64,000 nucleotides of DNA from Eledone cirrhosa (taxonomy: Eukaryota): positions 154,132,001-154,196,000 of the forward strand of contig OZ024742.1 of NCBI GenBank assembly GCA_964016885.1, written 5' to 3'. Numbering within the stretch: the stretch's first letter is position 1; each line of letters begins with the position of its first letter. This document shows positions 905-59,624 of this stretch, one piece after another. Below the pieces are notes generated by a model. That model was given only the letters and a program-made list of their open reading frames with translations, made no database searches and had not been told where the DNA came from. The position numbers and the translations under genes are program-made.

Positions 905-1951
905 ATATAAATATGTATGTACACGTACATACATATATGTATACAGACGTACAGTAGTATGTATATATATATACATACATGCACACATATATATATGTAC
1001 GTATGGATTCACCAAACATTTATTAAAATGCTCGGTGTGTTTGTAAACAAACATCCCGTATTAAGCTGTAGTGTCTAGTAACCATCGTTGCTCGTTTGTT
1101 CAACACTGACAAAGGAACACTGTACTACTTTCAAGCTTATTAGCTATCGTCAGCAACGTACACCTTCCTGTGAGGTTGTTGAACGTATATACTTACCTTA
1201 TGCATATTAACGGCTGAGTAGCCCAATTTGCTGACGATATCTAATAAGCTTGAAACTAGTACAGCGTTCCTTTGCCAGTGTTGAACAAACGAGCAACGAT
1301 GGTTGCTAGACACTACGGCTTAATACGGGATGTTTGTTTACAAACACACCGAGCATTATAATAAATGTTCGTTGAATCCATACGTACATATATATATATG
1401 TGTGCATGTATGTATATATATACATACTACTGTACGTCTGTATACATATATGTATGTACGAGTACATACTTATATTTAAGTAACAGCCGTACTAAGAGGT
1501 GGAAATGAAATTTCGTTTCATTTTTTCAGTTCATGGTTTTCGGTGCACCCGGCCGATTAACCCACTCGATATGCAAACTGGCCTACCTAGCCGTTAATAT
1601 GCATAAGGTAAGTATATACGTTCAACAATCTAGCATGAAGTTATACGTTGCTGACGATAGCTAATAAGCTTGAAACTAGTACAGTGTTCCTTTGTGAGTG
1701 TTGAACAAACGAGTAACGATGGTTGCTAGACACTACGGCTTAATACGGGATGTTTGTTTACAAATACACCGAGCATTATAATAAATGTTCGGTGAATCCA
1801 TACGTACATATATATATGTGTGCATGTATGTATATATATATACATACTACTGTACGTCTGTATACATATATGTATGTACGTGTACATACTTGTATTTAAG
1901 TAACAGCCGTACTAAGAGTGGGAAATGAAATTTCGTTTCATTTTGTCCGTT

Positions 1952-1952
<1 letters not shown>
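905..1952. mobile_element. Family A HHR element: inverted copy (905-1222) plus 420-bp tandem copies (1228-1952) in (TA)n
   Basis: CTGACGA at 1231 and 1651 (period 420) and reverse-complement TCGTCAG at 1147-1153. Related copies at 11635-11805 and 53320-54470. Confidence 0.85.
1645..1687 (+). ncRNA. Minimal type I hammerhead ribozyme (family A)
   Basis: ACGTTG-CTGACGA-T-AGCT-aata-AGCT-T-GAAAC-TA-GTA-CAGTGT: stem I with G-U pairs, palindromic stem III ACTAGT, GUA site. Confidence 0.8.
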
Positions 1953-5059: not shown

Positions 5060-5800
5060 AAGAATTGAGTATTTTAAATTCCTCTCTTTTAATGACCATA
5101 TGAGCTGTGATAAAGACGGGGATGATTTCCTCTTGGAGTTCTAGAATGAGCATTTATGGTTCGCTAATCTGGCTTTAAAATGTAGAAGTAGATCCTATGT
5201 AGTTGTATACGTTGTGATCAGTTTTTACGGTGCATTTATAAACCAAATTACTATCTAGACAATCATTTTGCAAAGGGCAATCAGTTTTATTTCTACAATT
5301 ACATTTAGGTTTAGTATCATTTATGTTAACTCTATTATTAATATCATTATGCTGGTTTTGTTTTAGGATTTTAGTGTTTAATTTGGCAATGTTTTGGGCC
5401 ATGTGCATAGTTGTAGAATACGAGAATTTAATGGTATGTCTATTAAAAATCGAATGGTATTTATGTTGAGTAGGGAAAGAGGTGTGCAAAGCGTTAACAA
5501 ATAATTTTGCAATTGGTGTTTTAACTGCGACCGAAGCCGGGAGCGGGGGACCATATGATTGATTTAGTTCTAGTTCTTATCCTCGATTTATTTGGGGTAT
5601 GGGTGTTTGAATCATAATTATTAGAGTTTCTCTTATATATGTTATTATTTTAATTAATATTAATATTTGGATTATTATTATCTAGATATTCTATATTATT
5701 CATATATCCTGCTCTTTTTAACGCGTTGTTGTCGTATTCAGCGTTTTCATCGAATATAGCTTTATTGGGTGATGTTTTATTAATTCATGTTTGCACACTA
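5060..5800 (-). pseudogene. Penelope-like element (Hydra-clade-like) thumb and GIY-YIG endonuclease fragment
   Basis: ORF 5175-5489: FPTQHKYHSIFNRHTIKFSYS...CNCRNKTDCPLQNDCLDSNLVYKCTV...YIGSTST. Confidence 0.8.
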
Positions 5801-6089
5801 TTTACTATAGCTTTTTTTTTACAGATTTAGGGTGATTGGAATGGTTACTAACATAGTTTAAGTTTCCAATGAAAATTAAACTGTTAGTATCCATTCCAAT
5901 CACCCTAAATCTGTAAATAAAAAGTGTGTGTGTATATATATATATATATATAAATAGTATTAAGGATACTATTTATGTATATAATAAAACCTTTTATGGT
6001 TATATATTTTTTATATAAACCCCAAATAGTGAAAGATAGTCATTCATTACTATCTTATTACCAGTAAGATAAATAGCTCAATGTAATAA

Positions 6090-6645
6090 CATCGGTTGTT
6101 TTACAGAGCAGTTATATAGAGATTACAATAATCAAAGTTCAGTTTAAAATCATTTATTTGCTTACAATTGTTTCCTCCAAATCGAGGTTTGGATTCTTCG
6201 GAGCAACTATTTAGTGATCTATAACATACTTGACCTCCTTTTCAACGCAAGAGACATATAAAAACATATGCATATATTGACCCACAGTGGGATGGCATCC
6301 ATCATAATGATATAGCATGGCATTTATATATAAAGGTTAAAGAATAAAAATAAAAGTAAAAATAAAAATAAAAATGAAACATTGGCAGTTTATGAAGGTT
6401 AAGCAAGAGGAAAGTTTAGAGTATTCAGTGTATGAAACAATCTCACGTGTAGCATGCACGCATGTCTTATTTATACAGGATTAGAATGCGGCAGATTGTT
6501 ACTTGTATGTCTCTTGTGTTGAAAAGGAGGTCAAGTATGTTATAGATTACTAAATAGTTGCTCCGAAGAATCCAAACCTCGGTTTGGAGGAAACAATTGT
6601 AAGCAAATAAATGATTTAAACTGAACTTTGATTATTGTAATCTCT
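6090..6645. mobile_element. Fold-back element (family C) with two CCGAAGA-core hammerheads
   Basis: 6118-6258 is the reverse complement of 6506-6645. Confidence 0.85.
6558..6606 (+). ncRNA. Type I hammerhead, U4C core variant
   Basis: TTGCT-CCGAAGA-A-TCCAAAC-ctcg-GTTTGGA-G-GAAAC-AATT-GTA-AGCAA. Second copy on the minus strand at 6158-6206. Confidence 0.8.
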
Positions 6646-6761
6646 CTCTCTCTCTATATATATATATGTGTGTGTATGTGTGCATGTGTATGTATGTATA
6701 TGTACATGTGTGTGTGCATATGTGTATATATATATATATATGTGTATATATGTGTGTACAA

Positions 6762-9797: not shown

Positions 9798-11799
9798 CTA
9801 ACCAAGCCAAAGAATCATTTCAATGTAAATATATATAAGTACGTGTATGTGTGTCTATGCGTGTGTATGGGTTTGTGTGTATGTGTGTATGAGTTTGTGT
9901 GTTTGTGCGCATGTGTTAATGTATATTTGTATGTATGTGCAAAGACAGGAAATATTCAGCTTGTTGCTCGAGCGTGTGGTTAACATACCGGGAGTACGGG
10001 ACTTCTATTTCTTTTTAGGAGAACTTTCTAAGAGGAAGAAATATCTGATGAAAAGCCTGTGACTCAATGGCAATCAATGGTTTTGGCGTGATTTTCTTTT
10101 TGCTTAGCTCGCATCGTTGTTCAGAGAGTGGGATTGGTAAAATGAAATGCCTTTCTTCATTTAAAATGTTTCAAGCACTATGATTTAATCTAAACAAGCT
10201 TCACGTGTACTGAAGCAGCACAGCCTTTTCATTTTTTCTTCACTGCCGCATTGACAGAAAGAAAGCTAAGCCCTTGGCTAGGCGAAAAAATCGTGTTGGT
10301 GCCACCCATGTCATAGAAATATTTCAAAGAAAAGCAATTTATTAAAACTGAGAGGCAGGCATTTGTTAAGTATAAATCGTTTTCCGAAAACTTTTATTTA
10401 CCAAATACCACTCCTGTATTATATTCATTCCAGCTTTGAGTAGAATGTACTTCTCCAAGGTGCGACACAAATATCTGAACCACAGGAAATGTAACACAGT
10501 TTTGTGATGACCATGACTAATCATAGCTTCAGTGACGTGTCTGGATATTAGCTGCAAACAGGAATAAAATGTACATCGTGATCTTGAGTAGAGAAGAGCT
10601 TACGTTTTGCTCTTCAGCATCAATAAGTTTCCATAATAATTATTAAAATTATTCCTAGTAGGTGACTAAAATTTAAAAAAATAAAAACTTTTATCTGAGT
10701 AAAATTTCTTTCATGACAGTGAGAAAATGTTTTCGTATGGAAATTATTTTGTTTTTGCTGTTGGTGATGATGTATCTTTTGTTGGAGACGTAGATTATTT
10801 TTGCTGTTAACATTTTTTATTATACACATGAAAAGTGCCTTGAAGCAATGTATATACATTCAAATTTCTTTGCGAATCTCAGCCTAACCTCTATATTGAT
10901 TTACAATTAAAATTGAATATCAGAGGAGAGGATATGTTAATCAAAAGTAGGTTGTTGCATGATACAAATTTAATTAGATTAGTTTCATGTGTACACAGAT
11001 TTTTTTGTGGAAAAAAAACCAGTGTCGCATAATTTTTTACAAAGAATTAGAGAAATATTTAAATAAATAAAATAAATATAAATTTTATTAATAATAAAAA
11101 TGATGGAAGTATTAGTTTAGCAGTTAAATACAATATATATACATATATATATATATATACGTCACAGGGATTTAATCTGAAAACATCTGTCTAAGTATAT
11201 CGTATGTATTTCCATAGAAATCTCATTCGACAGCCATTTTGCAAATTACAGTACGTTCAAACTAAGCTCTCTTTTATAGCATGAACATATAGAGACCATT
11301 ATCAGGATGTATTCAGGGAAATGTAAATTTATATGCCAAAAGATATAATTCTATTTATTTTCTTATTTGTTTTCGACGTCTTGAAACAAGTTTTGACAGA
11401 TTTGTTGTGAATTCATATCCATAAAATACTCTTTCAGCAAAGTTGTACTGGTTTATATTCAAAGTTTAGAACTCTTTATGATATTCCTAACTGAAAATTT
11501 ACATTTGTATTAGTATAGAAATCATGATAAATTGGAGCAACTATATGTATGGAACTAGCGATATGGTTTTGTGTGTGTGTGAGCTATATATGTATACTGT
11601 ACACACATATATATAGATATATATAGATGTAAAATAATGAAACGAAATTTACGGCTGTTTGTTTACAAACAAACAGAACATTATAATAAACATTCGGTAA
11701 GCCCATTCGTACATATATATATATATGTGAATGTATGTATATATATATATACATACTACTGTGCACTGTACACATATACGTATGTACATATACATACTC

Positions 11800-11854
<55 letters not shown>

Positions 11855-31289: not shown

Positions 31290-31290
<1 letters not shown>
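30165..31290. mobile_element. Fold-back of two circularly permuted ~560-bp units, each with a U3-A8 hammerhead
   Basis: A (30165-30545) then B (30590-30730) on +; reverse-complement A' (30742-31120) then B' (31143-31290). Confidence 0.8.
30964..31059 (+). ncRNA. Type I hammerhead with UUGAUAA core (U3-A8) and ~60-nt stem II
   Basis: TATCCTC-TTGATAA-GTcGGC..GCCAC-GAAAC-TACGTA-GTC-GAGGATA: perfect 7-bp stem I and palindromic stem III. Second copy at 30228-30324 (-). Confidence 0.8.
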
Positions 31291-31334
<44 letters not shown>

Positions 31335-31337
<3 letters not shown>

Positions 31338-31787
31338 GTTATGTGAGTTTTTCGAATATTAATAGTAATATTCGCTTCGTTTGCAATTATGCAAACAAGC
31401 CTCATTTTTAAAACCATGTCAGTGGAATAAGCCCCTCATTCTTGCACTTGTGTTGACATGTAAACAGAACTGCAGACACTAATGTTTCTGGGTATTACCC
31501 TTCATCAGTGCAATTCACCTGCCAACTCTGAGAGCTAGTGAAAATATGATATTTTCTTAAATATATAGGGACTGATCGGCCTGATTTGCTTGATGAAGGG
31601 TAATACCCAGAAACATTAGGGTCTGCAGTTCTGTTTACATGCGAACACAAGAGCAAGTGTGAAGGGGAGGGGGGGGGGCTCATCCTACTGACATAGCTTT
31701 AAAAATGAGGCTTCTTAGCATAATTGCAAACGAATCGAACATTATTATAATATTTGTTAAACTCAGATTACATTTAATGTATTCAGC

Positions 31788-31795
<8 letters not shown>
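31335..31795. mobile_element. Fold-back element with HHRs in both arms
   Basis: 31350-31508 is the reverse complement of 31590-31755. Confidence 0.8.
31470..31513 (-). ncRNA. Canonical type I hammerhead ribozyme
   Basis: TTGCA-CTGATGA-A-GGGT-aat-ACCC-A-GAAACA-ttag-TGTC-TGCAG; GUC site. Confidence 0.85.
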
Positions 31796-31835
<40 letters not shown>

Positions 31836-44228: not shown

Positions 44229-44279
<51 letters not shown>

Positions 44280-44830
44280 GTTAGAATATGTGTAATAAGG
44301 CCAAGACAATGCAGGTATGGACATAGAAAAAAGAATGCAATAGTGAAAGATATTGATGTGAATTCGTCTTTCACCTTGAATTTATTTAAATGTCCTTAAT
44401 TTTCGAGATAATATCTCTTCTTCGGACGGAAGTAAAGGTCTCAAACCAGCGTCTTTAAATCTCTAATCAAGCCATGCTGACCGGAAATAGTATAGAGTAT
44501 CTGTTCTAACTTTAATATCAAAGAATTAAAATTAGGTGGATAAAGAGTAGTCTCCCTTTAAGAGGGGTTTGTTTATGTTTATTTATTTATTTATTTTTTA
44601 TTTTTTTTTATTTTATATGCGTGCCTGTATATGTGTGTGGGAGAATGCATGAAGGTGTAGGTATGTGGGTGTGTGTGTGTGAGTGTGGGAAGATAGGTCT
44701 AATCGTAAAACGGGGGGTAGGTGTTATCTGGTGTTAGAACTGGTTTTGTGTGTGTATGTGTGAGAGAGAATAAGTGGAGGTATGCGCGTGCGTGTGTGTG
44801 GGGTGTGTAAAAATGGGGCTAGAGGCCCTA

Positions 44831-47412
44831 TCAGGTTATAAATTGGGTGTTGAGCTCTAGTCTATTATTGATTGGTGGATGTGTTCTATCTATAATAAGT
44901 GCTTCCTTAATTCTAAGATTGCCGAGTTTTCTTTCCTTAGTTTCTATCCTAACTGTTATGTTTTTATCGGTGTTTTTGCATTTAACTAGGTGTTTCTTAA
45001 ATGAGGAAGCGTTAGTATTGAGGTGTTCTTTTATTCTTATGTGGAGTGGCCTGGTGGTGCTACCTACGTAGAAGTTGTTGCATTTGTCACACTCTAGTCT
45101 GTATACTCCGTAAGCCTGGTGGCATAGGTCTGTGTCGTTGATGGGGCAGTTGGCTAGTCTGCAGCAGTTGTCATGTCTGGTGGAGTGTCTCTTAGCCAGC
45201 CGTCCGCGCAAAGAAGGACCCGAGTGGGCCAGTTGAATATCCAGACCCTCACGTCTGATGGCTCTGCGGATGGCTGTTGTTGTTTCTTCACTGAAGTGTG
45301 GGAGCTTCAGGAAGCAAGTGTTAGTGCCTCGGGTGTGGTGTCCTCTGTTCTTTCTGGCACGGTTTGTGGTGGATGTCGTGTATCCGTTCAGTTTGAGTAC
45401 TTCCAGGAAATGTGTGGTGTGTGTGTCTCGGTCTCTGGCGTCGGTGCATTTGTTCTTGATACGTGCCAGTTCGTTCTTTATGTATCCGAAATTGGCACCG
45501 AGTGGGAGGGCCGATCTGAAATGTACGAACATGTCCCTGCTGGCGGATTTTTTTATAGAAGCAGGTGTGGATGTTGCCTTCCTCTGTTACCCTGAGTTGG
45601 AAGTCCAGTAGGGATAGGGATCCGCGGTCATCGGGGTGTTCCATGCTGAACTTTATACTGGCGTCCATGCTGGAGAATGTTGTGTATATTTTCTCTGCCT
45701 CCTCACGGGATGATGTAAGGATGAGTATGTCATCTACATATCGGGTGAAGAACGCATGGGAATGGCAGGTGTTGAGGGCTCGGCATTCTAGCTGGTTCAT
45801 GTAAGTGATGGCCAGCAGGCCCGAGAGACTGGATCCCATGGGTAATCATGTTGTCTGTCTGTATCTGTGGTGGTGGAAGGTGAAGTACGTGTTGTCTACT
45901 GTGAAGGACAAAAGCTGGTGTATGTCCGTCGGGTGGAGGCCGTAGCAGTGGATGTTCTCTGCGACCACGCAGTCCGTCAATAAATCGACAGCTGGGTGAG
46001 CGGGGACTGTAGTGTAGAAGGAGACAACGTCAAGGCTAAAAGCGTATTTATTTAGTTTAAGTTGTTCTGGCTGGAGTTAGTGTAATCTACGTATAACTTG
46101 GTCGGAGCTACTGACATGTCCGGGGAAGGTGGAGAGTAGAGGCTTGAGGACCTGTGAGAGAAGCCAGGAAATTGTGTATAGGGGTCCTTCTATGCTAGAG
46201 ACGATGGGTCTTATATGCGTCTTAGTGCTATTCTTGTGGGTCTTGATGAGGTGGTAGAAAGTGGGCAGTCTTCTATTTCTAGTGGTGTAGTTGAGTTTAA
46301 TTTTATTCGGGAGTTGTCTTCTCCTACAGATATCGAACCAAATGGAGTTGGTCTGTTTTTCGATTTGGGCTGCGGTCATGTCCGGGATCACTGTGTACAG
46401 TTCACTGTCGCTTAGGTGTTCGAAGTCTAGGTTATTTTATGTGGCTTGAGAGATGACGCAGAACTCTTTACCTTTGTCGGATGGTAAGTAAATAAGTTCC
46501 TTATTCCGTAGGTTCTTCAGGACGAGTGTTGTGTCCTGGAGGGGTTAGGGGCCATCTTCTTCTGTTTCCGTAAGATGTTAAATACGGAATGTTTTAGTCT
46601 CGAGAGTTTTTCTTCCAGTTCGCGGTTGGCGGGCGGTGGATAGAGTGGGCGATCTAGTTGGTATATCGGGAATCTGGGTGTGGTGGATTCCGTGGTGTTG
46701 TTGTCGAGAGTCGATATCCATTTCAGTTGGTAGGCAGTCCGACAGAAATTCGTTTCTATGTCGAGCCATAATCTGTCGTCCAGTCTCTGTTTCAATATGA
46801 ACTTGGGACCCAGGCTGAGGAGGTCTAATTCCTCTCGGGAGAGGGATCCTGTCAAGTATGTGACGAGGTGTTTTGCGTCAGGTGTGTTGTTGGTCGGGGT
46901 GCCGCTAGGTTCGGTGTTGGTAACGTATTGTTCGCCTCTGTTGGTGTTTAGCGTTGGGATGTTGTTAAGACAGTTGGCCGTCCTGAGTTTGAGAAATGTT
47001 TGTGTTAGGCGTATTTTCTCGTAGTCTCGGCGGTGGTGGTATGACCTGTCTATAGTGGCGGAGATGAACCTGGACAGAGGTTCTGGGGTTTCAGCGAGTT
47101 GTGGTACAAGGCTGGAGATAGTCCGTATGTGATGTTGTAGCGTGCGGTGTAGGTGTTGTATGAGTTTTCTTAGGCAGAATTTTTGTATGCAACTGAGTGA
47201 TCGTTTGAGGCCTGGTGATTTGAAGCATGTTGGTAGGTGTACATTTTTGATGGTTTGGGGAATAATGTTGTTATTCAGGCATCGTTTTAGGAAGTTTATT
47301 TGGCAGCCGGCTTTGGCGCGCTTTTCAGATAGCTGGAAGAGTTTTTTACAGTTGTGAACTGGGCCTGGCTCAGGCGTAATGAAAGGAGGAGGTTATAGTT
47401 CACTTGAAGCAT
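44831..47412 (-). pseudogene. PLE polyprotein (RT + GIY-YIG endonuclease), ~860 codons, several stops and frameshifts
   Basis: LLSLGPKF; FYHLIKTHK..IRPIVS; SLDVVSFYTTVP; MGSSLSGLLA; RYVDDILI; C..CP..C..VYRLECDKCNNFYVGSTTRPLHIRIKEH. Confidence 0.92.
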
Positions 47413-47545
47413 TGTGTAATGAGGTATACACGTTAGAATATGTGTAATAAGGCCAAGACAATGCAGGTATGGACATAGAAAAAAGAATGCAATAGTGAAA
47501 GATATTGATGTGAATTCGTCTTTCACCTTGAATTTATTTAAATGT

Positions 47546-47580
47546 CCTTAATTTTCGAGATAATATCTCTTCTTCGGAGG
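47546..47580 (-). ncRNA. Minimal hammerhead in PLE pLTR, U4C core
   Basis: CCT-CCGAAGA-A-GAGAT-att-ATCTC-GAAA-AT-TA-AGG; second copy at 44394-44428. Confidence 0.65.
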
Positions 47581-47977
47581 GAAGTAAAGGTCTCAAACCA
47601 GCGTCTTTAAATCTATAATCAAGCCATGCTGACCGGAAATAGTCTAGAGTATCTGTTCTAACTTTAATATCAAAGAATTAAAATTAGGTGGATAAAGAGT
47701 AGTCTCCCTTTAAGAGGGGTTTGTTTGTGTTGTTTTTTTTGTTTTTTTTTTATTTTATTTTATATGCGTGCCTGTATATGTGTGTGGGAGAATGCATGAA
47801 GGTGTAGGTATGTGGTGTGTGTGTGTGAGTGTGGGAAGATAGGTCTAATCGTAAAAGTGGGGGGTAGGTGTTATCTGGTGTTAGAACTGGTTTTGTGTGT
47901 GTATGTGTGAGAGAGAATAAGTGGAGGTGTGCGGGTGCGTGTGTGTGGGGTGTGTAAAAATGGGGCTAGAGGCCCTA

Positions 47978-48672
47978 TCAGGTTATAAATTGGGTGTTGA
48001 GCTCTAGTCTATTATTGATTGGTGGATGTGTTCTATCTATAATAAGTGCTTCCTTAATTCTAAGATTGCCGAGGTTTCTTTCCTTAGTTTCTATCCTAAC
48101 TGTTATGTTTTTATCGGTGTTTTTGCATTTAACTAGGTGTTTCTTAAATGAGGAAGCGTTAGTATTGAGGTGTTCTTTTATTCTTATGTGGAGTGGTCTG
48201 GTGGTGCTACCTACGTAGAAGTTGTTGCATTTGTCACACTCTAGTCTGTATACTCCGTAAGCCTGGTGGCATAGGTCTGTGTCGTTGATGGGGCAGTTGG
48301 CTAGTCTGCAGCAGTTGTCATGTCTGGTGGAGTGTCTCTTAGCCAGCCGTCCGCGCAAAGAAGGACCCGAGTGGGCCAGTTGAATATCCAGACCCTCACG
48401 TCTGATGGCTCTGCGGATGGCTGTTGTTGTTTCTTCACTGAAGTGTGGGAGCTTCAGGAAGCAAGTGTTAGTGCCTCGGGTGTGGTGTCCTCTGTTCTTT
48501 CTGGCACGGTTTGTGGTGGATGTCGTGTATCCGTTCAGTTTGAGTACTTCCAGGAAATGTGTGGTGTGTGTATCTCGGTCTGTGGCGTCTGTGCATTTGT
48601 TCTTGATACGTGCCAGTTCGTTCTTTATGTATCTGAACTTGGCACCGAGTCGGAGGGCCGATCTGAAATGTA
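47978..48672 (-). pseudogene. Duplicated PLE C-terminus (thumb + GIY-YIG)
   Basis: ORF 47978-48358 is nearly identical to the end of ORF 44831-45532. Confidence 0.9.
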
Positions 48673-50319: not shown

Positions 50320-52792
50320 TGGAATGTGGGTGTCTTATTCCCTGCGCATATGTCGAGATGTGGGGTTAGTGGTATTTGTCTCGTGGTTGGATCTAGTAAT
50401 TATTGGCGATGAACTGTCATTCTGTTTCTGAGTGTGAGTTTAGTTTTTCTTATATAATCTTCATTGCATCCTTTACATTTAATGACATGAAGTAGATTTT
50501 TTGATCAGCAAGTGAAGTGATTTTTTACAGCAAAATTTTGTCCTGATTTAAATGTATATGCGTTGCCTTCGATGAGGTGAGTGCAGGTTCCACAATTAGA
50601 GCGACCACATTTTTTGACAGTTGGTTGTGGGTTTGTGGTAGGTAATTTGGCATTGGTGAGTAATGTTTTCAGTGATTTCGGTGTCTTTTGATTTTGATTA
50701 ATTTGTGTGTTTCAAGGGCTTTTTTCATTCTTGGGTCTTGTTTCAGTAGTGGGATGTTCTTGTGAATAGTGTTGTAAGCTTCCGCATTACTTGGCTTGTG
50801 TGTTGAGATATATGATAGAATATTGGAGGTACCTTGAATTTGTTTCTCTTTTCGTAATTCCTCAATGCCTATTGTTTTATCTTTTTCTATTCCATTACTT
50901 ATTAGTAATGGCGGGTACTGTCTTTCGAGTAGAATTTCCTTTAATTCTTGAAGTCTTTTATTTCGCGTTTCATAATTGAAGACTATCGTGCAAATTCTTC
51001 TTGCTTAGGTTAAAAGGAATGTTCGTCTTCGTGTGCTTTGGATGGTTGGAGGTGAATAGCACGTAATGTATGGAATCTGTTGGATTGTAGTGTATGTCAG
51101 TTTCAATATTTGTGTCTTTTTTTAAGATTAAGATGTCCAGAAATGGGACTTGATCTTGGCTGTATTCTATTGCGAATTGGATGTGGTTATTGATGCCGTT
51201 TATGAAATGTTTGAGTTCATTCAGTTGGTAGAGTGTGTGGGACCAAAGAATGAGACAATCATCCATGTAGCGTTTCCAATTCTCTGATAAATACTTTTGG
51301 AATTTCCATCCGTATTTTGATTTTGACTGTTCATATATCTTGACTTCTAAGTATGCCATGAATAAGTTGGCATAAGTTGGAGCGGCTTTTGTACCCATCA
51401 CAGTCCCCGATATTTGCTTATAATTACTGCCATCAAAATCCAAAAAATTGTTCTGTATGATAAATTTTAATCCCTCGGCGATGAAGCTTTTTTCTATTAT
51501 GCCAGGTATCTCATTGGGATATTTCTCTAGCCAGAATACTATTGATTCTAGTCCTTTTGGTGTGGGATCGTTTTGTAGAAATTCACTACATCGAAAGACA
51601 CAATAATAGTGACGTTTTTGACATGTTGGGGGAGGTGGTTTAAGAGGTCAAAAACTCTCTAACAAGGCGTGGTATGTGTTTGATAATTGGTTTTAGTAGT
51701 ATGTCTATAAAGTTGCTTAGTCTGTGTTTATCACATTATGGGCACGCTACAATTGGTCTTAACTTAAGATACGTGGGGTATTGTGTGTTCACGAAGGCTG
51801 AGGTGGATTCTCTGCAGGCATCGTTAATTATTTTACACTTGTGGATCTTCGGAAGTCCGTAAAGTTTGCTGGTTTTGTATTCAAAATGTGTTAAATATTC
51901 GCGTTCCTTTTTAGTTAAGTCTTCCTGGTATCGACAAATCAGTGTGTTTAATCTGGTCATTGTTTTTTATTGCTGGTAGTTTATTACTCTTTCATAGTAA
52001 TTAGTATCTTGTTTGAGAGAACATAGAACTTTTATATTATTCAGCATGCATAATGACAACAGTACTTGCCTTGTCCGCTTCCTTAATTATAAATTCCATA
52101 TTGTTTTTTATTTCATGCATAATCTCCCATTTCCTTCGACTCGTGCTGTGTTTGGGTTTATGTTACGGTAGTTCATGGTATGGGAAAGTAGCTATGTGGT
52201 CACAAGTAGGTATGTGGTCTAGAACTCTTTCTAGCTTTTGTTGGGTTGTAGCTGCTTTTATTCCGTACAATTGATTGGTCGTTATTCTCCTTGTCAAAGA
52301 ATTCCTCTGTGAGACGTAATTTTCTACAGAAGTGTGAGATATCGTCATTTATCTCATTGATGTTAGAATATTGTGGTGTTGGTGTGAATTTCAGTCCTTT
52401 GCAGATAACTTTTACTTGTTGGGCTGAGAGGTTTGTATTTGAAAGGTTGATTATTTTCGGTTTTTCAAAATCGGTTTGTGCCACCGGGTGTCGTGGGTCC
52501 TGTAGCCTTGGTCTAAAAAATGATTTTTCTGGAATGTTTGTTCAATGGTATTATTAGATCTAGTGGCATTTCACATGTTGTTGTGTGGTCTTGTATAGAA
52601 GTTTCGGACGTATTGAGGTTCGGTTTGTTGATGGTCCGGGTTGTAGATGTTGTTCCTTTGTGTGGGTTGGGATCTACGATTTTGGAAAAGGCTCTGTGTG
52701 GGCAGGGGTCTACGGTTTTGGAATAGGTTTTGTGTGGGTTGTGATCTGCGGATCGAGTCCTGTCTTGTGTTGGGGATCTGCCATAATTTCAT
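50320..52792 (-). pseudogene. PLE RT + Zn-linker + GIY-YIG, decayed
   Basis: KGLKFTPTP; LYGLPKIHK..LRPIVA; GTVMGTKAAPTYANLFM; RYMDD; CGRSNCGTC..CKGCNEDYI..RMTVH. Confidence 0.88.
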
Positions 52793-53201: not shown

Positions 53202-54502
<1,301 letters not shown>

Positions 54503-58875: not shown

Positions 58876-59450
58876 CTATTTAATTTTGCTTGTAATTTTT
58901 TTAATGTTTATTGCCTCTATGATTTGTCTCAATATTGCGTCTTTTTTGTGTGTAGATTCTATTTTTATTTCTATGTTCTCTAATTTCCCCTTATGTTCTA
59001 TTTTAGCATGTTGGTAGAGTACAGATGATTCTTTACTATTTTGAAGGTCTCGCCAGTGTTCATTTATCCGTTCCCCTACCCTACGAGCTGTCTCACCTAT
59101 GTACACTATATTTTTATCTCTACATTGTCCTTCGGTACATCTGATGCTATATACTACATTTCTAGTTTTACAGTTAATATGGGGGCTTAATTTACAGGTT
59201 ATACATTTCTTATCTATACAGGGGGGTCTTTGAAAAGGGTATGTCTTGCTAATAAGTGTTTTTATGGAGGTACCTGGTCTTTCTACTATGTTAATAATGA
59301 GTTTATGTTTATCTAGGGCCCTTCTAAATTTGTAAGCTAATTCACCTCTACGGGCTGTATCGATGAACATTACACTCTGGTATTTATTGCTATCATACCA
59401 TGAGTTTATTCTATTAGCCTTATTCCTAGTTCTTTCTATTCTATTCCAAA
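58876..59450 (-). pseudogene. PLE GIY-YIG endonuclease fragment with Cys-rich linker
   Basis: IVERPGTSIKTLISKTYPF..CIDKKCITC..CKTRNVVYSIRC..C..YIGETARRVGERINEH..RQIIEAINI. Confidence 0.88.
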
Positions 59451-59624
59451 AGTTGCTCCTGTACAAGGGTCAGGTCGTAAATAAACAAATAAATAAACGA
59501 ATATAAACACACACAGACACCCGGATGTGGCGCATGCGCAGACTGAGCACACAACACACACACAGAAACAAGATGGCGTAGGACAGAACAAAGGAGAGGC
59601 ACAAAAACAAAGAAAAGAAACCCC

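Follow-up and report, generated by a model that had tools for sequence, protein, structure and literature searches.

Introduction

Metazoan non-LTR retrozymes are low-GC, non-coding units of 150-450 bp that occur in tandem and at very high copy number, each unit carrying a canonical type I hammerhead ribozyme (Cervera and de la Pena 2020, PMC7229834; Li, Clavereau and Pollet 2026, bioRxiv preprint 10.64898/2026.07.22.740005, hereafter the preprint). Dimeric cleavage has been described for metazoan type I hammerheads (PMC4209133; PMC7229834), and circular RNAs are abundant for the retrozymes of coral, mussel and axolotl (PMC7229834). Both retrozyme papers propose a Penelope-like partner and a circular template, and in both the use of the circle as template is put forward as a hypothesis. 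The link between retrozymes and Penelope-like elements has so far rested on co-occurrence and on similarity to pLTRs.

Penelope-like elements themselves (Craig et al. 2021, PMC8557442; Frangieh et al. 2024, PMC11167929; Cervera and De la Pena 2014, PMC4209133) insert into microsatellites as partial tandems accompanied by an inverted, truncated copy, with a tail at only one end (PMC8557442), and their pLTRs carry hammerheads (PMC4209133). Non-autonomous head-to-tail Chlamys elements have already been described in this literature. Reverse transcription by a purified Penelope-type protein starts at two adjacent internal positions, which delimit the tail, and the same enzyme cuts both strands of AT-rich DNA in vitro (PMC11167929).

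Here we analyse a hammerhead-bearing repeat family in Eledone cirrhosa, starting from a stretch of 64,000 nt (contig OZ024742.1 of assembly GCA_964016885.1, positions 154,132,001 to 154,196,000; "the window"), in which a preliminary description had picked out a 420-bp tandem unit at 905-1952 and called it retrozyme-like.

A two-armed insertion in a (TA)n tract

Self-comparison resolved 905-1952 as a single insertion inside (TA)n, made up of an inverted arm, a truncated unit and a full unit. The inverted segment 908-1231 is 93.6% identical to 1573-1898 (blastn aligned 915-1231 to 1889-1573 at 94.3%), and the truncated segment 1228-1534 is 94.2% identical to 1648-1954. The layout given in the preliminary description was incomplete, lacking both the inverted copy at 908-1231 and the minus-strand core at 1153. 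The features are as follows.

683-907, no strand: (TA)n microsatellite, left flank and likely target (TRF array 683-996 and sequence)
908-1231, minus: inverted 5'-truncated arm, its 3' end being the short end E1, which runs into (TA)n (self-alignment and end class; locus L001)
1117-1159, minus: third hammerhead, core 1153 to 1123; C>G at 1128 breaks the stem III palindrome (GAAAGTAGTA)
1228-1231, no strand: inversion junction; the 4 nt TTGC fit both arms, the plus arm running from 1228 and the minus arm from 1231
1228-1534, plus: unit 1 of the direct arm, 5'-truncated (94.2% to 1648-1954)
1231-1267, plus: hammerhead 1, most of the stem I 5' strand gone, stem II mismatch at 1240; predicted cut after A1261
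1262-1681, plus: site-to-site 420-nt monomer (hypothetical RNA)
1535-1953, plus: full unit 2 of the direct arm, family A
1571-1578, plus: octamer-like slot, here ATGCAAAC (family form ATGCAAAT)
1645-1687, plus: hammerhead 2, the only intact one; predicted cut after A1681
1893-1953, plus: "tail" between the fixed 3' ends E1 and E2; the direct arm stops at E2
1952-2044, no strand: (TA)n microsatellite, right flank
53322-54465, no strand: second insertion in the window, subfamily B, both cores mutated

At 905-1952 the inverted arm stops at E1 and the direct arm at E2. The second insertion has the same layout, with a minus arm that ends at E1 and a two-core plus arm that ends at E2. A short, older fragment of the family (about 83% identity), two-armed and without a hammerhead, lies at 11,598-11,850.

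State of the hammerheads

The cores on the plus strand begin at 1231 and 1651, 420 nt apart, with predicted cuts after A1261 and A1681, and the stem I strings quoted in the preliminary description (ACGTTG/CAGTGT at 1645-1687 and ACGGTG/CATCGT at 54135-54177) are correct. The two cores had also been called identical, which they are not: they match at 30 of 31 nt, and the differing position, G>T at 1240, places a U.C mismatch in stem II of core 1231. Since this core starts 3 nt past the inversion junction, most of its stem I 5' strand has been lost as well; this strand reads AATTTG and three consecutive pairs are left (stem I AT, AG, TC, TG, TA, GC; stem II AT, TC, CG). Hammerhead 2, by comparison, is a type I ribozyme with a 6-bp stem I, CUGACGA, a basal U.U in stem II, GAAA and a palindromic ACUAGU. 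The canonical type I form (CUGANGA...GAAA...NUH, three helices, helix I open) is present at 1645-1687 and family-wide but absent at 1231, where stems I and II are broken, and at 1153 on the minus strand, where stem III is broken, so that one hammerhead of three is intact at 905-1952. An Rfam scan of the whole window returned no match at the gathering threshold.

Outside the microsatellite-like block, this copy differs from the family majority at 27 positions, mostly private and some of them in paired regions. At the second locus, core 54135-54177 carries a catalytic mutation (CCGACGA), and the neighbouring core at 53573 has CTGGTG for CTAGTA. The preprint takes two consecutive complete hammerheads as the mark of an active copy; such pairs occur elsewhere in the family (for example at L091 and L115) and not at 905-1952, which lowers the case for an active copy here and leaves family membership unaffected.

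Release of a 420-nt RNA from this locus

The preliminary description had expected the two plus-strand sites to release a 420-nt monomer. This expectation fares poorly, with one hammerhead of three intact and that one predicted to be buried by the inverted arm. In the predicted fold of a read-through transcript, the inverted arm pairs with 1573-1889 in a duplex of ~320 bp that covers core 2, and the predicted probability of stem I, in a thermodynamic calculation that does not model the catalytic fold, was 0.0 in both monomeric and dimeric arrangements in each of three transcripts (905-1960, 1200-1960 and 1228-1960). For the young dimer L091 the corresponding probability was about 0.9, and folding preferred the monomeric over the dimeric stem I.

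An active source at 905-1952, in which read-through RNA would be cut at 1261 and 1681 to give a 420-nt circle, would draw on the presence of both GUA sites 420 nt apart and on the 5' half of core 2, which could pair with the 3' half of core 1 at 6/6 positions. Taken as a circle, the monomer is predicted to re-form stem I across the junction (pair probabilities 0.46-0.95); its linear fold has a free energy of -118.9 kcal/mol (z -4.83, partly due to the AT-rich palindromic block). However, cleavage at site 2 needs the reciprocal core, in which stems I and II are broken; core 2 is covered by the predicted duplex, and the octamer slot is mutated. We consider an active source here very unlikely; this copy is a decayed product, predicted not to release 420-nt RNA.

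The junction proposed for the circle, GUA|CAGUGU, also requires correction. Closure of a monomer from this locus would create GUA|CAGCGU, and GUA|CAGUGU is the uncut genomic site 2. Private letters mark unit 2 (1632 A, 1636 T and 1641 T) and unit 1 (1275 C), and their combination is absent from the linear locus. More generally, junction reads or divergent RT-PCR cannot discriminate a circle, because transcripts of the many tandem genomic copies contain the same junction.

A high-copy, non-coding hammerhead family

The core pattern had 27,510 exact matches in the genome and its reversed control none, so the hammerheads are not a product of chance; the number of intact cores is thus at least 27,510. 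DNA searches of the genome with the first and second window loci gave 1,703 and 2,880 candidates, respectively. For a census of subfamilies, 54 loci holding 117 cores were taken by position from the start of contig C1. Stem I was ACGTTG/CAGCGT in 45 cores (A), ACGGTG/CATCGT in 36 (B), ACGATG/CATCGT in 8 (C) and GTAGTC/GATTAC in 6 (E, a 310-bp family), with rarer forms in the other 22. Cores are spaced 419-433 bp apart in A and 442-568 bp apart in B, and arrays of directly joined units have up to 7 cores in one arm (L091). GC content is about 40% outside the AT-rich block, and the longest ATG-initiated ORF in the 420-nt monomer is 53 aa, even when the monomer is read round as a circle. Four sequencing-derived contig sets of unrecorded kind contain the family and have C at 1685 in nearly all depth; two other organisms are represented, by one run each and only 4 and 7 contigs.

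The octamer slot reads ATGCAAAT in 73 of 87 slots of position-sampled loci and is absent from the one family-E stretch that was checked. The slot at 1571-1578 is a possible promoter element. Newt satellite 2 has an snRNA-type promoter, and a promoter of this type in the studied unit is a lead only.

Tandem, low-GC, non-coding units with one hammerhead each match metazoan non-LTR retrozymes, and at the level of the family the retrozyme-like label is thus borne out. By its testable sequence features we class the family as a metazoan non-LTR retrozyme, likely mobilised by a Penelope-like element. The weak palindromic helix III resembles that of axolotl HHR_Amex1, and the basal U.U of helix II that of HHR_Amex2, whereas in sequence the family is unrelated to metazoan retrozymes as compared by Rfam only. 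Plant LTR retrozymes have type III hammerheads in LTRs, a PBS and PPT, 4-bp target duplications and a Gypsy partner (PMC7229834; preprint). They share with the studied unit its non-coding, hammerhead-delimited character and a proposed circular RNA intermediate; we rejected this class for the unit, which has type I topology and is arranged in tandem and inverted copies.

Loci L164-L173 of contig C1 hold a very young set of 310-311 bp family-E insertions, two-armed, with up to 16 cores and near-invariant within each locus. Between 51,776,000 and 51,794,000 of the same contig, family-A tail motifs alternate at 428 and 1,285 bp, which suggests a higher-order array.

Covariation and selection on RNA structure

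The preliminary description had compared stem I of the two window loci, read two pair changes as covariation between subfamilies (U-G to G-U and G-U to G-C) and inferred selection on RNA structure. The first change is real: at this position subfamily A has the pair U-G, subfamily B G-U and subfamily C A-U, and 2 of the 117 cores have U.U. The second is not a change between subfamilies. CAGCGT is the family form (9,284 occurrences genome-wide, against 235 of CAGTGT), so that T1685 is a C>T change at a CpG in this copy; core 1231 itself has CAGCGT. A 23:25 split of CAGTGT to CAGCGT, seen when loci were picked by similarity to this copy, was an artefact of that choice. The argument for structural selection is supported for the founders of subfamilies, but half of the evidence cited for it is CpG decay, and this copy has pair-breaking private changes. 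This case carries a wider caution, in that apparent covariation between two single copies of a young repeat can be CpG decay.

The comparison with family E extends the founder-level signal. In an alignment of 11 representative rows (the F-type L162, which aligned one column off, was left out), 10 of 16 pairs change on both sides, the stem III palindrome included, and 99.4% of cells are paired. Slid controls gave 0-2 two-sided pair changes, and the shuffle control ignores relatedness; since most of the two-sided changes come from one split (A/B/C versus E), they represent few independent events.

Stem III is the palindrome ACTAGT in 106 of the 117 cores, at loci chosen by a pattern demanding it. 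Among the first 100 of 19,309 non-CTAG cores (loop other than TN), stem III is palindromic in 97, as ACGCGT in 94 cores, which stem from a few arrays, and as ACATGT in 3; the other 3 are non-palindromic. A short palindromic stem III agrees with dimeric cleavage, the mode reported for type I hammerheads of metazoans. Taken together, the alignments support structural selection acting on source lineages, at the level of founders. Three single hammerhead-like motifs with the palindrome ACATGT were also observed (L162, L161 and L146), of which L162 has a full stem I and the other two are degenerate.

Insertion ends follow a one-of-each rule

On their 3' side, arms of the family stop at either of two fixed positions, E1 or E2, which are separated by about 58-61 nt, the exact junction being blurred by TA. 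Across 111 loci we counted 77 E1 and 84 E2 ends, and 140 of these 161 ends are followed by (TA)4. Head-to-head insertions combine one E1 with one E2 in 43 of 45 cases (P 3e-11 against 0.5), and in 17 of 19 in the position-sampled subset; three overlapping loci were left out of this count and both exceptions were kept in it, though one of them, L127, looks like a mis-called internal unit. Family E has one of each end in all 9 loci with both arms listed (scored by eye). Neither E1 nor E2 coincides with the hammerhead cut site.

Partial tandems, an inverted 5'-truncated copy, a tail at one end and a microsatellite target, the four features of a Penelope-like layout, were all found. The tail is about 60 nt in the studied unit and about 35 nt in family E, compared with 30-40 nt in Penelope-like elements. 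Differences from endonuclease-bearing Penelope-like elements are that the unit has no ORF, that its hammerhead is canonical and not minimal, and that no autonomous partner was found: tblastn of six Penelope-like fragments from the window against the sampled loci returned only neighbours, the nearest case being L114, where the repeat lies antisense in an endonuclease-like ORF, and the first 100 of 178 variant tail ends held no recurring new sequence. As no autonomous element sharing the unit's ends was found, we infer the mobilising enzyme. The unit itself is not an autonomous Penelope-like element, a candidate that we rejected for its lack of an ORF and of any RT or GIY-YIG domain seen in line.

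Could the copies instead be the pLTRs of 5'-truncated autonomous Penelope-like insertions, and no element of their own? Penelope-like fragments occur commonly both in the window and close to the loci, and pLTRs are among the known locations of hammerheads. But units abut the next unit directly, up to the seven cores of L091; no RT or GIY-YIG sequence runs in line into a unit among the matches inspected; and tail ends run into the next unit or into (TA)n. Such an origin is, in our view, highly improbable. Spread as a satellite at the DNA level, by unequal crossing-over or DNA rolling circles and with an incidental hammerhead, is barely credible. Tandem arrays do exist, and the preprint suggests local DNA amplification after insertion, but several features bear the stamp of reverse transcription: copies are dispersed over many contigs, their 3' ends are fixed and their 5' ends scattered, and E1 and E2 occur one of each. 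Pairing is also conserved between families, and the end rule already largely refutes this account.

The template of copying

The 5' ends of arms are scattered. When arms shorter than 100 bp, arms at the edge of a locus and arms whose start falls in the microsatellite-like block were excluded, 140 remained, and only 1 of these begins 5 nt or less from the cut site. Arms also continue across this site and reach 3.2 kb. Both observations indicate that cut linear monomers were not the main template. In four arms a start at the cut site was only apparent, as they extend 4-23 nt further.

Variants shared within a locus bear on how many templates were used. In family E, 70 of 72 full units carry the haplotype of their own locus on both arms, with 8 haplotypes in 10 loci, and in A and B the two opposite arms resemble each other more than they do the median other locus at 14 of 15 position-sampled loci and at 28 of 30 loci in total. 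These haplotypes point to one RNA template per insertion, most simply a circle copied round. At 905-1952 no private variant is common to all three cores, so this locus itself gives no evidence of a circle. As for RNA-editing scars, the excess of A>G over T>C changes on the sense strand is weak (29:19, 35:21 and 6:4; pooled P 0.019).

The same element could have been inserted by a Penelope-type enzyme from an uncut multimeric linear transcript, circles having no part in copying and the hammerhead cutting rarely or serving another step. Multi-unit arms and the absence of a 5'-end pile-up at the cut site fit such a template equally well, and uniform units would also be expected from a homogeneous master array. 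In the one in vitro system, moreover, insertion did not depend on hammerhead cleavage, and in Anolis the site coincided with no read ends (PMC11167929); in the preprint, predicted Xenopus dimers show low activity, 8 of 9 being without cleavage. Haplotypes that are locus-specific over all units and both arms are, however, simpler to explain with a monomer bottleneck, the conserved palindromic stem III implies selection for cleavage, and circles of the coral, mussel and axolotl retrozymes are abundant. On this evidence we regard copying from a linear multimer as unlikely.

A decayed copy of a probably circle-templated element

We think it probable that 905-1952 is a decayed two-armed insertion of a high-copy, non-coding hammerhead repeat, likely written into (TA)n by Penelope-like machinery, probably from circular RNA, and predicted not to release RNA of its own. 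Under this account, intact tandem arrays elsewhere would be transcribed and cut at GUA by dimeric hammerheads, two ACUAGU sequences pairing as stem III, and the monomers would be ligated into circles, as the retrozyme literature leads one to expect. A Penelope-type RT/GIY-YIG enzyme, a candidate named from the footprint visible at the ends, would then cut both strands of the (TA)n and prime at E1 and E2, one on each side of the break. Judged from the arms, each of the two cDNAs extends past the cut site over anything from a fraction of a unit to several units and terminates at a scattered position; the two are joined head to head, after which the copy gathers private mutations.

The broader proposal, that thousands of insertions of the family keep the footprint of a pair of Penelope-type enzymes priming at two fixed sites on one small ribozyme-made RNA circle and running round it from both sides of the break, seems to us evenly balanced. 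If true, it would amount to genomic proof of the proposed life cycle of retrozymes and would give a one-E1-one-E2 rule for the origin of the inverted repeats and tails of Penelope-like elements. The strict end rule and the single-template arms name two priming sites and define an RNA substrate that could be tested in vitro.

Inverted arms, two fixed 3' ends and the one-of-each rule are not described for retrozymes in the available text of PMC7229834 and the preprint. Our literature search, which covered the main text of largely open-access papers, turned up no description of this family and none of a two-end rule in retrozymes; related families may be listed in the supplements of the preprint, PMC7229834 and PMC8557442. 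Taken alone, the locus is ordinary, a damaged copy among tens of thousands, and the importance of these observations lies at the level of the family.

Other Penelope-like and hammerhead-bearing elements

A young Penelope-like element with a partial tandem (97.8% identity between repeats) lies on the minus strand of the window at 44,273-48,672. It has GIY-YIG and RT Pfam matches in separate frames, and its terminus is dissimilar to the studied unit. Further Penelope-like fragments were found at 50,973-51,647, 58,879-59,469 and 5,178-5,576 (minus); one is RT-like and one GIY-YIG-like, each scoring below the Pfam cut-off, and another resembles a cysteine-rich linker and matches no Pfam entry.

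A different hammerhead family, with a stable stem III, is represented at 31,290-31,800 (core 31508, minus) by a two-armed copy between (TA)n tracts, and it shares a short hairpin with the studied unit (blast match 31729-31819). At 5,990-6,650 there is an inverted-repeat element between TA tracts, and near 6,160-6,205 on the minus strand we noted by eye a degenerate hammerhead-like CCGAAGA...GAAA with a palindromic ACAATTGT. An inverted repeat of about 140 nt at 1-140 has CTGAAGA...GAAA near 82-105, also noted by eye.

Two loci outside the window record later events. At L114 (contig C1, near 18.49 Mb) a subfamily C dimer lies antisense within a Penelope endonuclease-like ORF (L114:5,570-6,470), flanked on both sides by the same 9 bp, a possible target duplication, and the composite is repeated in inverted orientation at L114:4,200-4,850, as if it had later been moved whole. 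At L122 the same two-armed insertion occurs twice, 2,586 bp apart, likely by a later duplication at the DNA level.
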